A stretch of DNA of 64,000 nt from Candidatus Nomurabacteria bacterium. Its GTDB lineage: Bacteria; Patescibacteriota; Minisyncoccia; Phycocordibacterales; UBA918. The translations under genes and the position numbers were made by a program. Below are positions 2,109-42,234 of the stretch, in pieces. Under the pieces are notes generated by a model. The model was given only the letters and a program-made list of their open reading frames with translations, was not told the DNA's origin and ran no database searches. The stretch covers positions 581,124 to 645,123 of the forward strand of contig JACKGC010000001.1 in the NCBI GenBank assembly GCA_020632135.1, read 5' to 3'. Numbering within the stretch: position 1 is the first letter of the stretch; every line of letters starts with the position of its first letter.

Positions 2109-2304
2109 TTACTGAAGCAGAGTGCATTTTGTGCGACGATACAACTAAGGATAAAAGACACCCCCTGCGGTGACTTTTATCCTTATTTAGAGCCACACAA
2201 TAATATTTGGTTATACACAGTACGAGCTCCGTTAACGCTTCTGCGGGTGCTGAAATTGCTATACTTAATAGGTATTAATCAATACACGCAACATTATAAT
2301 TATT

Positions 2305-3009
2305 ATGATCAACTTACACACAAAACACTTTACGCAATCAGCGCTGTACGCGCTGGTGGCCAGCTGCACCATCGTCACTATGGTGTTCATGGCTTACTTC
2401 TTAGCAGAACCAGCAATTAGTCATGGTCAGGCTGACACGGCAACTTTCTACGTACGACAGTCTATCACTGACGAAAGTTCATTTTTGGTCAATCCATCGA
2501 ACATCACTATGACCGGCCCGATCAACGGTGTGACGGGTGGTCAAGCAACTGGTACCACTCAGTTTGTGGTCCAGTCTAACAACTCAGCTGGGTATTATGT
2601 CGAGATCGACTTCTTTGACAACGGTACTTCTGAGGCAATGCTTGGTGATGAAACTGCCAGCGAATCACTCCGTAACTACAGCGGAGCAACCAGCACACCA
2701 TCATTCGGCTACACCGCGAGTACTGCTGCGCAGTTCGCGTACACAGTTACTTCTACGACATCAAGCGATACTGGCCCCCTATTCTTGAACAACACTACGA
2801 TTTGTGGTGCGGGCGCAGTCCAGTCAGCTAATACTTGTTGGATGACTCCAAGTACTACCCCAATTGTCATTGTAGACCGTGATTCTGCTGCTACTACTGG
2901 TGCAACCTCAACCATCACCTTTAACGTGACAGTGCCATCAGGCGCAACTCCTGTGCCACAAGCAGAGACATACACTGCTACCGCAACCTTGTCGCTTTTC
3001 GTGAAGTAA
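2305..3009 (+). CDS. Small secreted/anchored protein, paralog of 4092..4859
   Basis: N-terminal hydrophobic segment (ALYALVASCTIVTMVFMAYFLA). Shares blocks with 4092..4859: (I/V)xM(T/S)..(V/L)TGG..(T/N)G(T/S)..F.V; SxGY; FGYT; CW...STTP(I/V)V; and C-terminal YTATxT(L/V). Confidence 0.65.
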   Translation: MINLHTKHFTQSALYALVASCTIVTMVFMAYFLAEPAISHGQADTATFYVRQSITDESSFLVNPSNITMTGPINGVTGGQATGTTQFVVQSNNSAGYYVEIDFFDNGTSEAMLGDETASESLRNYSGATSTPSFGYTASTAAQFAYTVTSTTSSDTGPLFLNNTTICGAGAVQSANTCWMTPSTTPIVIVDRDSAATTGATSTITFNVTVPSGATPVPQAETYTATATLSLFVK

Positions 3010-3030: not shown

Positions 3031-4089
3031 ATGACTACTGGAGTTCGAACACTTACCGTTGCGTGTCTCTCAATATTGCTCGCTACACCTCTCTCTGGAG
3101 AGGTGTTTGCGCAGCAAAATTCGAACGAAATAACTTCAACCACCTCTGCCACTACGACTGAAAGTGTGTTAGCGGTCGAGCCAGAGGCTGAGTCTGAGCT
3201 ATGGTACAAGTCTGAACGAATCTTTGGCCGGATCGATGCCGGGGACTTTGTGGTTGGCCCTGGTCGGACTGAGATCGAAGTGGCTCCAGGTGAGACAGTC
3301 ATTCAGGAAGTGACAGTAACCAACCGTATCAGCGGCGATCGCTCATTTTTGCTAGAGGTCGAGGATATTACTGGTAGTCGCGATGGTAGTAGTGCAGTGA
3401 GTTTGATGGGTGCCGAGCGTGGCCCGTACAGTATTAAAGACTATATCTCATTCCCTGAGACTGAATTGAATTTGGACCTTGGTGAGCGTGCTCGTATCCC
3501 CGTCATTATTACCGTACCACCAGATGCGGAGCCAGGCGGCTACTATGGTAGCGTGCTGGTCTCTACCATTCGGACCAATGAAGATGGTGCGGCGGCAGCA
3601 CCTCGTTCACCGATCATTGCGCGCGTTGGGTCGCTGTTCTTCCTGCGTGTGCTCGGCGATGCGGTCACCGAGGGACGCACCCAATCCATCAGTGTGCTCG
3701 GGGATAAATGGTGGCATGAATCTGGCCCGATCGAGTTGGGTATTTTATATGAGAACACCGGTTCCATCCATGTGAACCCATACGGTGAGCTTTCGATCAC
3801 TAACATGTTTGGTGAAGAGGTCGGTTTTGTTGAGTTGGAGCCGTGGTTTGTACTGCCAAATTCGCTTCGTGTCCGGGAGGTTGTGTGGGACCGAGAGTTC
3901 CTGCTTGGTCGGTATGAGGTGACTGCACGCATCAACCGAGGCTACGATGACATTGTGGATGAGGTGACGGTAGCGTTCTGGGTCTTGCCCTGGAAGATCG
4001 TCGGGGGATTGTTCTTAGGTCTGTTCATTATTATTTTCGGTATAAGAGCATTTTTCCGCACGTTTGAATTTAAGCGGAAAGGTGCGTAA
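3031..4089 (+). CDS. Surface protein with signal peptide and C-terminal membrane anchor (DUF916/DUF3324-like layout)
   Basis: N-terminal signal-like LTVACLSILLATPLSGEVFAQ. C-terminal TM GGLFLGLFIIIFGI followed by a basic tail RAFFRTFEFKRKGA. Two beta-rich halves. Sits between the two paralogous small proteins. Confidence 0.65.
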   Translation: MTTGVRTLTVACLSILLATPLSGEVFAQQNSNEITSTTSATTTESVLAVEPEAESELWYKSERIFGRIDAGDFVVGPGRTEIEVAPGETVIQEVTVTNRISGDRSFLLEVEDITGSRDGSSAVSLMGAERGPYSIKDYISFPETELNLDLGERARIPVIITVPPDAEPGGYYGSVLVSTIRTNEDGAAAAPRSPIIARVGSLFFLRVLGDAVTEGRTQSISVLGDKWWHESGPIELGILYENTGSIHVNPYGELSITNMFGEEVGFVELEPWFVLPNSLRVREVVWDREFLLGRYEVTARINRGYDDIVDEVTVAFWVLPWKIVGGLFLGLFIIIFGIRAFFRTFEFKRKGA

Positions 4090-17827: not shown

Positions 17828-18271
17828 ATGCTACCAACCGCATTGACCGCACTTGCAGTGAGTTTGGGTACCTTCGTGGTGCTTGTTGGAGTGACTGTTC
17901 AGGAACGCCGACGTGGTCGGCGTTTCTTTGCGGGTAGTGTGCGACAGTGGTGTGATGCTAAGGCTGACCGACTGGAACGAGGGACCACTGAGAGTATCGA
18001 TCATTTTGTGAAGTACATGGTCCAGCTCAACTGGTACTACAGTATTCACAGTGTCCTGCGCACGTTCTTGCGAGCAATCGTCGCGGTGTATACATACTTT
18101 GAGCATGTGTTTGAGCGAAATCGTGAGCGCACAAAGCAACTGCGCAACGAAAAGCGTAAACTCAGCGAGCTTAATCACTTGCGACAGATGACAAAGCATA
18201 AAGAGGAAACAGCTCTGACACCCGCCGAGCAACGGAAGTTACGCAAGAAGAAGCTCGAAGAGCGGTTTTAG
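17828..18271 (+). CDS. Hypothetical membrane-anchored protein
   Basis: N-terminal TM (ALTALAVSLGTFVVLVGV) and a basic helical C-terminus. No recognised motif. Confidence 0.5.
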   Translation: MLPTALTALAVSLGTFVVLVGVTVQERRRGRRFFAGSVRQWCDAKADRLERGTTESIDHFVKYMVQLNWYYSIHSVLRTFLRAIVAVYTYFEHVFERNRERTKQLRNEKRKLSELNHLRQMTKHKEETALTPAEQRKLRKKKLEERF

Positions 18272-18334
18272 TGGCTGGTAAATTGTGGAGGAGTCTGGTA
18301 GGATTTGCCTCACTTGCAGTGTTGAAAGCTGCGA

Positions 18335-18407
18335 GCCAGCTTAGCTCAGTTGGTAGAGCAACGGATTTGTAACCCGTAGGTCATCAGTTCGAATCTGATA
18401 GCTGGCT
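18335..18407 (+). tRNA. tRNA-Thr (anticodon UGU), no encoded CCA
   Basis: Hand-folded cloverleaf: acceptor GCCAGCT/AGCTGGC, D arm GCTC-AGTTGGTA-GAGC, anticodon loop TT-TGT-AA, T arm ATCAG-TTCGAAT-CTGAT, discriminator T. The last anticodon-stem pair is A.C. Confidence 0.85.
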
Positions 18408-18426
18408 CGCAGCTTTTTACAAACCT

Positions 18427-18579
18427 GCCAGCTTAGTTTAGTTGGGAGAATTAAAACAGTCTGGGGGACTGTTTTAAAGATTTGTAACCCGTAGGTCATT
18501 AGTTCGCATCACAAGAGTATTTCCGAAATTATGCACGAGCAAGCTCTCGCTAATTTCTAGGTCACTCTGATAGCTGGCT
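18427..18579 (+). pseudogene. tRNA-Thr-like tandem copy interrupted by two hairpin insertions
   Basis: Keeps acceptor halves, anticodon loop plus 3' anticodon stem, variable region and T stem. About 29 nt replace the D-stem 3'/anticodon-stem 5' strand, and about 56 nt are inserted after the T loop. Same 3' trailer as the first copy. Confidence 0.6.
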
Positions 18580-18605
18580 CGCAGCTTTTTACGTTGACGG
18601 AAGGT

Positions 18606-18648
18606 GTGAAAAAGAGCGGGAAAGCGAAGCTTTCCCGCTCTTTTTCAC
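18606..18648 (+). terminator. Strong hairpin terminator after the tRNA region
   Basis: GTGAAAAAGAGCGGGAAAGC-gaa-GCTTTCCCGCTCTTTTTCAC, a 20-bp perfect stem. Confidence 0.75.
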
Positions 18649-18723
18649 TACCAGCCCACCCAGTCTTTCGTTGCGTAAAAAACCTTTATTTTCTATACAA
18701 ATGGGTATATACTCGCCATACGC

Positions 18724-20286
18724 ATGGCGGGAGACGACCAGTCACATTTATTGCCATACGCTCGACGTTCAGATTTTAAGGTCGCGCGCGCAACCGAACT
18801 CTCAGGGAGAGATCGGGTCTTTTATCGTCTCCTGGAGATCGTACCTGGAGTCGCATCCTGGGGCTTTCTGATCGGTCTCTTGCTCGCTTCCATTTACGCT
18901 TCATTTTTTGCGGCGTACTTCATCATTGCGTTCTCTATTTTTTGGGTATTGAAGACCGTCTTCCTGTCGTATCACGTTCGACACAACTGGAAGCGTCTTA
19001 AGCACCATATGGAGCTCGATTGGCAACAGCTCATTGAACGTTTCCAGTATGATCAGTTCCACCACCTGGTCATCTTTCCGTTTTACGAAGAGCCGCGCGA
19101 AGTACTTGAAGGGGCACTTAAGGGTTTATTGGGGTCTAAGTACGACCACAAGAAGCTCATCGTGGTACTAGCGGCTGAGGCACGAGCCGGGGCTGAGCAA
19201 GTATCGTTGGCGCGTACACTCGAAACCGAGTATGCGAGTAAGTTTGGTCATTTTCTCGTGACCGTACACCCCGCTGACACAGTCGGAGAGATCGCGGGCA
19301 AAGGCTCCAATACCCACCATGCCCTCCATGAGGTAAAGAAGAAAGTGATCGATGTGCATCAGATCCCGCATAAAGACATCATCACGTCGATCTTCGATGT
19401 TGACACTGTCATCTACCCGGATTACTTCAACTGTCTCATGTGGCACTTCATGACCGCTGAGAATCCATACAAGAGCGCCTTCCAACCGGTGCCGCTCTTT
19501 GCCAATAATCTCTGGGAAGCCACTGCGCTTTCTCGTGTGATGGCAATGTCGAGCACCTTCTGGCAAATGATCATGCAGGAACGTCCAGAAAAGGCAGCCA
19601 CCTTCTCTTCACACTCGGTGAGCTTTCAGGCACTTTACGAGATCGGGTACGGGCAAGCCAATGTGGTCAGTGAGGACTCGCGCATTTTCTGGAACTTACT
19701 AGTGGCCAACAATGGTAATTTTGAAGTGGTCTCACTTTCGTACCCGATCGCGATGGATGCCACCACCGCACCAACCTTTTGGGGGACTATCAAAAACATC
19801 TACAAGCAGCATCGCCGCTGGACCTACGGAGTTGAGAACTGGTGCTACATCATTTACCACTTTGTAAAGAATAAAGCCATTCCGCTGAAGAAGCGCTGGG
19901 CCATCGGACTCATTCAAGGAGAAGGGTACTGGTCGCTGGCGACACACCCGCTCGTGCTCTTCATGCTTGGTTGGGCACCTATTTTCCTCGGGTCACGTGA
20001 ATTTCATGGCACGGTGCTCTCGTTTGAGTTGCCGTTCATGGTACGCAACTTACTCATTCTCGCTATGGGTGGTTTGGTTGTGTCATCCATTATCTCGCTT
20101 TCACTTACGCCACCGCGGCCAGATGGACACAGTCGTTTCCGGTACGTGGTGATGGCGTTGCAGTGGGTGATGGTGCCGATCACAATGGTGCTTTTTAGTG
20201 CCGTTCCTGGACTGGAAGCTCAGACTCGGCTAATGTTTGGTGCATATATGGGTTTTTGGGTAACACCCAAACGACTTAAGAAATGA
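18724..20286 (+). CDS. Integral-membrane processive family-2 glycosyltransferase (cellulose/chitin-synthase-like)
   Basis: TMs at both ends. Cytoplasmic GT-A core with FDVDT (DxD), VSEDSR (TED-like) and KQHRRW (QxxRW). Confidence 0.75.
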   Translation: MAGDDQSHLLPYARRSDFKVARATELSGRDRVFYRLLEIVPGVASWGFLIGLLLASIYASFFAAYFIIAFSIFWVLKTVFLSYHVRHNWKRLKHHMELDWQQLIERFQYDQFHHLVIFPFYEEPREVLEGALKGLLGSKYDHKKLIVVLAAEARAGAEQVSLARTLETEYASKFGHFLVTVHPADTVGEIAGKGSNTHHALHEVKKKVIDVHQIPHKDIITSIFDVDTVIYPDYFNCLMWHFMTAENPYKSAFQPVPLFANNLWEATALSRVMAMSSTFWQMIMQERPEKAATFSSHSVSFQALYEIGYGQANVVSEDSRIFWNLLVANNGNFEVVSLSYPIAMDATTAPTFWGTIKNIYKQHRRWTYGVENWCYIIYHFVKNKAIPLKKRWAIGLIQGEGYWSLATHPLVLFMLGWAPIFLGSREFHGTVLSFELPFMVRNLLILAMGGLVVSSIISLSLTPPRPDGHSRFRYVVMALQWVMVPITMVLFSAVPGLEAQTRLMFGAYMGFWVTPKRLKK

Positions 20287-42195: not shown

Positions 42196-42234
42196 ATGAA
42201 ATCGAAGTGGCTGGTGGGATTGGATGAGGCAGGT
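42196..42234 (+). pseudogene. Relic copy of the rnhB 5' end (13 codons)
   Basis: ATG AAA TCG AAG TGG CTG GTG GGA TTG GAT GAG GCA GGT encodes MKSKWLVGLDEAG. The functional start is MSKFLVGIDEAGRG at 42354. The frame then runs into unrelated sequence and stops at 42369. Confidence 0.7.

Follow-up and report, generated by a model that had tools for sequence, protein, structure and literature searches.

Several RNAs that tRNA enzymes recognise do not decode, for instance mascRNA from the 3' end of MALAT1, the tRNA-like domain of the Y RNA YrlA, and the tRNA-like domain of tmRNA. In bacteria, a functional small RNA can also come from a tRNA precursor, as is the case for 3'ETS-leuZ from the E. coli glyW-cysT-leuZ operon (PMC8383071, in the part that cites Lalaouna 2015). 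Fragments and partial duplications of tRNA genes near tRNA genes have been reviewed as integration scars (PMC9897764), and in archaea tRNA introns transpose (PMC10714607), the multi-intron tRNAs of Thermoproteales and the split tRNAs being the cases for comparison. Here we describe a tRNA-derived element in a 64,000-nucleotide (nt) stretch of the genome of a Candidatus Nomurabacteria bacterium (this whole stretch is referred to as the window). The gene for tRNA-Thr(UGU) is followed there by a second, altered copy of itself (copy 2, 18427-18579, with a tail identical to that of the tRNA running to 18592), in which a hairpin that we denote hp1 takes the place of one strand of the anticodon stem. 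Sequences of the same design are found beside this tRNA in other genomes, and we designate all of them, copy 2 included, as element E. We put a probability of about 0.5 on the reading that E is a conserved, structured RNA module derived from tRNA-Thr, non-decoding and co-transcribed with the tRNA, which would serve as a binding platform, a decoy or a cis-processing element.

E resembles each of the described systems in part. It shares with mascRNA, YrlA and tmRNA the combination of tRNA acceptor and T-arm features with a replaced or disabled anticodon arm, and these RNAs are conceptual relatives; unlike them, its conserved part is the 5' half plus hp1, many of its members have no 3' half, and it is Rfam-negative. 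The nearest functional bacterial precedent is 3'ETS-leuZ: E could likewise be a non-tRNA segment that is co-transcribed with a tRNA, released and active in trans, whereas 3'ETS-leuZ is described there as an Hfq-dependent sponge of Enterobacteria that is not tRNA-derived. Like the tRNA fragments known as integration scars, E is tRNA-derived, lies beside an intact tRNA and partly fools tRNA finders, but it is accompanied by neither an integrase nor an integrated element, it has both ends of the tRNA, and it contains a hairpin conserved with covariation between genomes, a feature absent from scars. As in the multi-intron tRNAs of archaea, there are inserts outside of the anticodon loop, and a recurrent insertion beginning with AAGCAAAGCTT is found at differing positions between copies in related loci. 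Unlike those tRNAs, E has no bulge-helix-bulge, excision of its inserts restores no tRNA, its host is bacterial, and hp1 replaces a strand of the anticodon stem instead of interrupting it.

ARAGORN finds a single tRNA in the window, tRNA-Thr(UGU), at 18335-18408. We list this gene as 18335-18407 (+); it matches the Rfam tRNA model RF00005 with 70 bits (E-value of 7e-15) and is syntenic in ~40 related loci. The first-pass annotation of the sequence had described a second tRNA copy closely downstream, and most of the anatomy that it gave is borne out. Copy 2 starts at 18427, after a spacer of 19 nt, and keeps the 5' acceptor strand (GCCAGCTTAG, 18427-18436): its first 10 nt are those of the tRNA, and the next 17 nt carry 6 changes. 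The acceptor-like strand and a diverged D-arm remnant occupy 18427-18450 (+), within an 82-bit match (18427-18487) to a covariance model, R1, that is introduced below. The altered D stem, GTTT/GAAT, can indeed pair, by one compensatory change and two G.U pairs, and the 5' region can also fold locally as CCAGCU/AGUUGG (-7.5 kcal/mol, z = -2.2 versus shuffles). The conserved core of E, hp1 (18451-18477, +), reads TTAAAACAGTC-TGGGG-GACTGTTTTAA and replaces tRNA positions 26-30, occupying the place that A26 and the 5' anticodon-stem strand would have. It had been proposed to form its own hairpin, and it does so with the stem TAAAACAGTC/GACTGTTTTA and a TGGGG loop at 18462-18466; the fold has a free energy of -12.4 kcal/mol (z = -4.7), and none of 200 shuffles was as stable.

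The anticodon-loop remnant UUUGUAA, the 3' strand of the anticodon stem, the variable region, the 5' strand of the T stem and an altered T loop follow at 18478-18509 (+). A block here is identical to the tRNA, as had been noticed, although its length is 21 nt and not 19 (GATTTGTAACCCGTAGGTCAT, 18479-18499). Copy 2 lacks the 5' strand with which this anticodon-stem strand would pair, and its T loop, TTCGCAT, has C for A58. Pairing is still possible in the T stem (ATTAG at 18498-18502 with CTGAT at 18567-18571). A second insertion of 57 nt, specific to the window, separates these two strands (18510-18566, +). The insertion is real and close to the ~56 nt first given for it, but the GAAATTA/TAATTTC hairpin ascribed to it is at chance level (-8.9 kcal/mol, z = -0.59, with 47 of 200 shuffles folding as well). 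Since the insertion closes with another TAGGTCA, repeating the variable-region/T-stem start, an equally good reading is that two partial copies overlap and join here. The remainder (18567-18592, +) comprises the 3' strands of the T stem and the acceptor stem, the discriminator U and a 13-nt trailer, trailer 2, all 100% identical to the tRNA; the identical tail measures 27 nt rather than 26 (TCTGATAGCTGGCTCGCAGCTTTTTAC, 18566-18592). The acceptor stem of copy 2 is a perfect 7 base pairs (bp). Divergence from the tRNA is thus a mosaic, with 8 differences in the ~20 nt of positions 10-30 and 2 in the other ~60 alignable nt.

A 560-nt region with the tRNA and copy 2 is 100% identical in contigs of two other, independent metagenome assemblies (L001 and L003), so the tandem arrangement is not an assembly artefact, a concern that the first-pass annotation had raised. 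Two further contigs of the window's species differ at the 57-nt insertion. One (L006, 859-965) has a copy 2 that lacks the insertion and carries the tRNA's own T arm, and the other (L008) breaks where the forms with and without the insertion diverge (the equivalent of 18496 in the window). Both end at repeat boundaries; they suggest an allele without the insertion, although a chimera created by the repeat, instead of a true polymorphism among strains, may be the cause, and we rejected L006 as proof of an insertion polymorphism since the contig stops at such a boundary.

We fetched ~45 related loci via the neighbouring gene, which encodes a protein of 147 amino acids (aa). Almost everywhere among these loci, this gene is followed by tRNA-Thr(UGU). 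A covariance model (A2, R1) was built from eight E-like sequences. We found that R1 matches beside tRNA-Thr(UGU) with 41-86 bits in the window and in L009-L012, L016, L021, L022, L024, L028, L029, L035, L036, L038, L039, L046 and L047, whereas genuine tRNAs score 26-38 bits against the same model. Strong covariance-model matches come to 17 in 15 sources, plus L046 and L047, and in all the core was found next to tRNA-Thr(UGU) at no fewer than 19 related loci. E lies within ~20-120 nt of the tRNA, upstream or downstream and always on the tRNA's strand, and is present twice in L028 and three times in L035. Its members share one design: the 5' acceptor strand comes first, then what is left of a D arm, a hairpin of 10-11 bp with a YGGGR or CUGGG loop, and finally an anticodon-loop remnant, with A(A/G)NUUUGU after the hairpin.

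The two strands of hp1 change together. Among 14 distinct sequences, 7 of the 10 pairs of the helix have compensatory double changes and 95% of the cells are paired; shifting the register lowers the paired fraction to 40-52%, and none of 500 shuffles reaches the observed values. The base of the helix (UUGAAA/UUUCAA or UUAAAA/UUUUAA) and its apex (UC-YGGGR-GA or CUGGG) are conserved, with free variation in between. Each of the four wobble cells is G.U, with no A.C among them, a pattern that points to an RNA on the tRNA's (+) strand. Such covariation had been suggested as a check on both of the inserted hairpins: it is found in hp1, and the second insertion is specific to the window. The hp1 of the L009 type (GAGAAAGUCCGGG) resembles CR-I of RNase P RNA, a likeness confined to one subgroup that we take to be coincidental.

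The core is also conserved in sequence. Those of L012 and L039 are 95% identical to each other and each 88-89% identical to that of the window, and the adjacent 147-aa protein in these two genomes is 45-59% identical to the window's. L012 and L039 also have an insertion in common, of which BLAST aligns the first 34 nt only (88%), the remainder being much more diverged by eye. Because the rest of this insertion is more diverged, the core appears to be selectively conserved within one co-inherited unit. The apex motif of hp1 has one copy in the 64-kb window, no more than chance predicts, and in the fetched loci of the Candidate Phyla Radiation (CPR) it is found at the tRNA-Thr site only. It follows that hp1 is not a dispersed repeat. 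A dispersed mini-transposon was considered and rejected, as hp1 is single-copy in the window and one further model match, at 42214, apparently lies in the start of an open reading frame (judged by eye). The conservation of E, the covariation in hp1 and the linkage to tRNA-Thr(UGU) are, in our view, established, and so is the finding, detailed below, that copy 2 is not a tRNA.

E occurs in two architectures. In the downstream type (window, L009, L012, L029 and L039), E comes after the tRNA and carries the 3' half of a tRNA. In L012, L029 and L039, 33-45 nt of this half match the genome's own tRNA at 100%, and in the window the identity is 94-100%. Because the 3' halves match the tRNA of their own genome while the tRNAs differ between genomes, gene conversion is indicated. 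Conversion has evidently not taken place in L009, where the T stem is broken, the acceptor has a mismatch, the trailer is an orphan CGCAGCTTTT and the anticodon region belongs to the tRNA type of another lineage; the hp1 of this copy is a perfect 12-bp stem despite the decayed 3' half. In the upstream type (L010, L011, L016, L021, L024, L028, L035, L036, L038, L046 and L047), E comes before the tRNA, and the 24 nt at its start match the genome's own tRNA at 100%, again as gene conversion would have it. After nt 31-36, these copies continue with a perfect inverted copy of the tRNA from nt 36 back to 21/25 (12-16 nt), which forms a second hairpin. Judging from the two types together, the conserved denominator is the 5' domain, hp1 and the anticodon-loop remnant, and all else is a lineage-specific patchwork.

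Two further kinds of rearrangement were seen at this site. The whole tRNA-Thr cassette (promoter-like motif, tRNA, trailer element and terminator) is inverted relative to the flanking genes in ~1/3 of the related loci (L019, L020, L031, L033, L037, L041-L045, L050 and L051). In addition, a recurrent insertion of ~70 nt beginning with AAGCAAAGCTT is present in L010 (3268 onward), L012 (3173-3245 and 3328 onward) and L039 (891-961), and a variant beginning with AAGCAAAAGCTT in L027 (2488-2557). It consists of a mini-hairpin, AAGC-AAA-GCTT (AAGC-AAAA-GCTT in L027), and then a long irregular hairpin, and is inserted in extra copies of tRNA-Thr in the D loop, after nt 38, after nt 43 or within the T stem. 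Either a small mobile insertion with site specificity or a module that recombines could account for it. The 57-nt insertion of the window has only AGCAAGCTCTCGC in common with it.

The surroundings of E resemble a transcription unit. A promoter-like motif, CTGGTAAA ... TAGGAT, lies at 18275-18304 (+), and in related loci a motif of the form CTGGTAAAA-N-T(A/T)GGAT/TACGAT precedes whichever element comes first in the unit, the tRNA or an upstream E. A generic sigma-70 scan of the window did not call CTGGTAAA ... TAGGAT, and we regard it as a putative promoter. Between this motif and the tRNA, the leader strand AAAGCTGCGA (18325-18334, +) pairs with the trailer TCGCAGCTTT and lengthens the acceptor stem; the minimum free energy fold of 18318-18425 contains a helix of 17 bp followed by U5 (z = -6.4). 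The leader/trailer helix covaries between lineages, with the window, L012 and L040 on one side and L019, L039, L009 and L048 on the other. Overall it adds 10-15 bp to the acceptor stem of tRNA-Thr and is seen also in L039 (722-737 with 810-825). The window has one leader for two identical trailers (18407-18416 and 18579-18588), so that alternative structures could form.

Trailer 1 (TCGCAGCTTTTTAC, 18407-18420, +) forms, in the predicted fold, a terminator-like stem and U run with the leader or with the 3' acceptor strand, and a scan likewise calls the region of trailer 2 terminator-like (18572-18586; AGCTG-GCTCG-CAGCT, then T5). The unit ends in a strong terminator hairpin (18606-18648, +), with a perfect stem of ~20 bp in the fold of 18300-18660; the Rfam matches of this segment are only spurious, miRNA-type ones that are typical of a long hairpin. 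Because E is near the tRNA, on the tRNA's strand and behind a common promoter-like motif, it is most likely part of the primary transcript of tRNA-Thr, and it would most probably be made by read-through of that transcript.

What E might do can be outlined from these features. Because hp1 substitutes for the 5' anticodon-stem strand, E cannot decode, and it would act other than as a translation adaptor. We infer that E is transcribed, processed and bound by a partner. It may be a tRNA-linked small RNA or a cis element, released or shaped by the tRNA-processing machinery, and its exposed G-rich hp1 loop, together with the tRNA-like 5' domain, could bind a protein or a C-rich RNA, as a platform or as a decoy. 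This mechanism is a guess. The first-pass annotation had named an otherwise unusual tRNA-like RNA among its options, and this option comes closest, given an hp1 that is conserved and co-varying in a tRNA-Thr-derived family. The family is apparently undescribed. In Rfam 15, E has only tRNA and spurious long-hairpin (miRNA) matches (gathering threshold on 14 loci; E-value ≤10 or ≤1 on the window and L011), and our literature search returned no paper describing E and nothing relevant on CPR tRNA introns or tRNA-like RNAs.

Several points weigh against a function for E as an RNA. Every compared locus was reached through the neighbouring 147-aa gene, which biases the sample, and the controls for the hp1 covariation correct only partly for relatedness. 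E is patchy, with ~half of the sampled loci lacking it, the close relatives L041-L045 included. Its position switches between upstream and downstream of the tRNA, neither the D stem nor the 5' acceptor strand is kept uniformly, and no partner for the G-rich loop of hp1 has been identified. The tandem copies in L028 and L035 would fit neutral unequal crossing-over too. Finally, the site is a rearrangement hotspot, with inversions, partial copies and, in some lineages, an HNH endonuclease gene, and the conservation could partly be the result of recent horizontal spread.

This last point leads to the alternative that survives best, although we consider it rather unlikely: that the site is a hotspot where tRNA pieces are duplicated, inverted, converted and joined by fold-back repair, with copy 2 as one of the resulting pseudogenes and hp1 as filler DNA that has spread with the cassette. 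The trigger would possibly be a homing HNH endonuclease that cuts the tRNA-Thr gene. The variable architecture of the site, with its upstream and downstream copies, tandem arrays and frequent cassette inversions, is what such a history would leave. Furthermore, the breaks in partial copies are concentrated at tRNA positions 36-44, the inverted stretch at the end of upstream copies resembles fold-back repair, and in the window the 3' part of the copy is degenerate, with a 57-nt insertion that has no significant structure and may be polymorphic among strains. An HNH gene (PF01844, 28 bits) adjoins the tRNA in L017, L019 and L048/49, and all three HNH lineages have unique anticodon-stem variants. 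However, filler would not be expected to retain 7 compensatory pairs, an invariant GGG loop and 89-95% identity in hosts so far apart while neighbouring parts of the element diverge, and hp1 is intact in L009, where the tRNA-like 3' half has decayed. Moreover, the HNH gene is found in no E-bearing locus and not in the 64 kb of the window. The suggestion that copy 2 is a decaying duplicate can therefore be kept for one part of it only: the 3' part, with A58 changed to C and a window-specific insertion of no significant structure, is by itself compatible with decay plus gene conversion, but the conserved, co-varying hp1 core does not behave as a neutral pseudogene would.

The HNH gene encodes an endonuclease of 128 aa and is located at 2214-2600 (-) in L049, at the equivalent position in L048, at 3129-3485 (-) in L017 and at 3103-3483 (-) in L019. 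The anticodon stems of these three independent lineages are ATAGT/ACTAT, ACTGT/ACAGT and ACGCA/TGCGT, and unique variants are found in 2 of the ~30 loci without the gene. In L048, an upstream tRNA fragment that ends at nt 38 keeps the common ACGGT stem. This pattern suggests a homing endonuclease aimed at the DNA of the anticodon arm.

It is improbable, in our estimation, that E works at the level of DNA, where hp1 would form a cruciform or single-stranded hairpin used as a site by a recombinase, transposase or nuclease at the tRNA-Thr cassette. Inversions and tandem amplifications at the locus would be accounted for in this way, and a similar hairpin is present twice in an unrelated, GC-rich viral contig (L053), where it resembles a small mobile palindrome. 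On the other hand, a conserved loop and base with a co-varying middle, and G.U pairs without A.C, are typical of RNA; hp1 is always on the tRNA's strand and is single-copy in the window, with no recombinase nearby; and the L053 match is, by a rough estimate, within chance for one database-wide scan. The two hairpins of L053 (AGAAAACAGTCCGGGGGACCGTTTTC and a variant) lie at 103-125 and 491-513. The latter interrupts an IS481-like transposase gene, and the former may do so too. The contig is not from the CPR, and its hairpins are probably an unrelated small palindrome or a coincidence. A match in another viral contig, L054, was set aside as apparently a chance match in a coding region, and the pattern of the upstream-type E had no match in viral contigs.

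A functional but unusual tRNA, either one whose introns are spliced to give tRNA-Thr or one that uses hp1 as its anticodon arm, is very unlikely, and we regard this reading as largely refuted already. Some features do invite it. The acceptor stem is perfect and the T stem pairable in copy 2, the T arm and acceptor end are intact in the downstream-type copies of L012, L029 and L039, and ARAGORN reads the versions of E in L029 and L006 as a tRNA-Pro(GGG) of 94-97 nt, the latter being free of the 57-nt insertion. Copy 2 itself (18427-18579) received no call from ARAGORN, intron-tolerant mode included, and no Infernal match to RF00005 at an E-value ≤10. When we excised both insertions in silico, only 2 of 2016 combinations of boundaries led to ARAGORN calls, both of them defective with a 4-base anticodon. 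Excision yields no tRNA because just 2 of 5 pairs can form between CCCGU and AAAGA, the remaining 5' anticodon strand. The inserts do not resemble known introns either: hp1 is an uninterrupted 10-12-bp hairpin without 3-nt bulges or bulge-helix-bulge geometry, copy 2 has no Intron_gpI match and no group I signature, and a group I intron was rejected because inserts of 27 and 57 nt are far too short and lie outside of the anticodon loop. The intron-bearing tRNA entertained in the first-pass annotation is contradicted by these results. If hp1 were instead the anticodon loop of a tRNA-Pro(GGG), its stem of 10 bp would be twice the normal length of 5 bp, and its 5-nt loop, when read as 7 nt, would not keep U33, as this position is C in ~half of the sequences; we rejected this assignment as well. 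Copy 2 lacks a 5-bp anticodon stem closing a 7-nt loop with U33. Nor does it have a contiguous 7-nt T loop with T54-A58, as its T loop bears C in place of A58 and an insert of 57 nt, and in the upstream-type members of the family the 3' half is missing altogether. Copy 2 is thus not a tRNA, with introns or without.

The weakest alternative, an att-type partial duplication as the trace of a mobile element that has integrated or been excised, had also been raised at first: tRNA genes are common integration sites and partial copies their typical scars (PMC9897764), but here both the 5' and the 3' end of the tRNA are duplicated rather than the 3' end alone, the copies are 19 nt apart between housekeeping genes with no integrase, recombinase or other mobile-element gene among the neighbouring genes, and an element of identical design with an internal hairpin recurs in many genomes, which together make this origin scarcely credible.

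A second unannotated structured RNA, which we denote E3, is found directly 3' of tRNA-Thr(UGU) in many Paceibacteria, in forms of ~76 nt and ~165 nt. Copies are located in L011 (2559-2726), L015 (3084-3249), L036 (2717-2968), L016 (3214-3289), L028 (2824-2974) and L050 (1994-2076, -). E3 is often tandemly amplified; for instance, the copy in L015 is followed by ~7 partial repeats up to 3940. An RNAalifold consensus of five long copies has 60 pairs, of which 27 show compensatory changes. A TAGAG-like remnant of a D stem opens E3, and a 12-bp minihelix resembling the acceptor and T arms closes it, the 3' strand of this minihelix being identical to tRNA nt 64-74. E3 has no Rfam family and no nhmmer match in the window. 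We considered whether the 57-nt insertion is a copy of E3, which a MAFFT alignment had suggested, and rejected this since profiles of the short and long forms had no nhmmer match in the window at an E-value ≤10. A broader reading, which we hold to be plausible but more tentative than a coin toss, is that Paceibacteria have a family of tRNA-Thr-derived RNAs (E here, E3 elsewhere) that are non-decoding mimics, perhaps shaped by an arms race with HNH endonucleases. Such mimics would be decoys, processing or regulatory elements, or non-ribosomal carriers of threonine, and in the arms race the endonuclease may target the anticodon-arm DNA of the single-copy tRNA gene.

The genes around the locus are, in order, those for a release factor, rpsB, tsf, the conserved 147-aa protein, tRNA-Thr, a family-2 glycosyltransferase and pheS/pheT. 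The 147-aa protein (17828-18271 in the window) has a hydrophobic N-terminus, is very basic and lacks a Pfam domain. Its homologues in Paceibacteria number at least 148, and its gene is between tsf and tRNA-Thr wherever neighbours were examined. By this protein, the window is assigned to Candidatus Kaiserbacteria (Paceibacteria, CPR). On the other side of the tRNA, a highly conserved motif, CTTTATTTT-N12-GGTATATACTCGC (18680-18726 in the window), is located 10-15 nt before the ATG of the glycosyltransferase gene, and most related loci have it at the corresponding place. It resembles a promoter that would give a leaderless or nearly leaderless glycosyltransferase mRNA.

For annotation, E is a trap, as spurious tRNA-Pro(GGG) calls by ARAGORN would distort the inferred tRNA sets of these organisms, and it supplies a concrete motif and a covariance model for searches. 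If E is recombination debris after all, the locus would be a natural example of a nuclease-targeted tRNA gene gathering fold-back and partial-copy scars. CPR genomes of ~0.65 Mb have little spare DNA, and a conserved non-coding structure beside a single-copy, essential tRNA is unlikely to be idle. If E is indeed a structured, tRNA-Thr-derived RNA, it would add a class of tRNA-derived regulatory or mimic RNAs to a phylum in which almost no non-coding RNAs have been characterised beyond rRNA, tRNA and RNase P.

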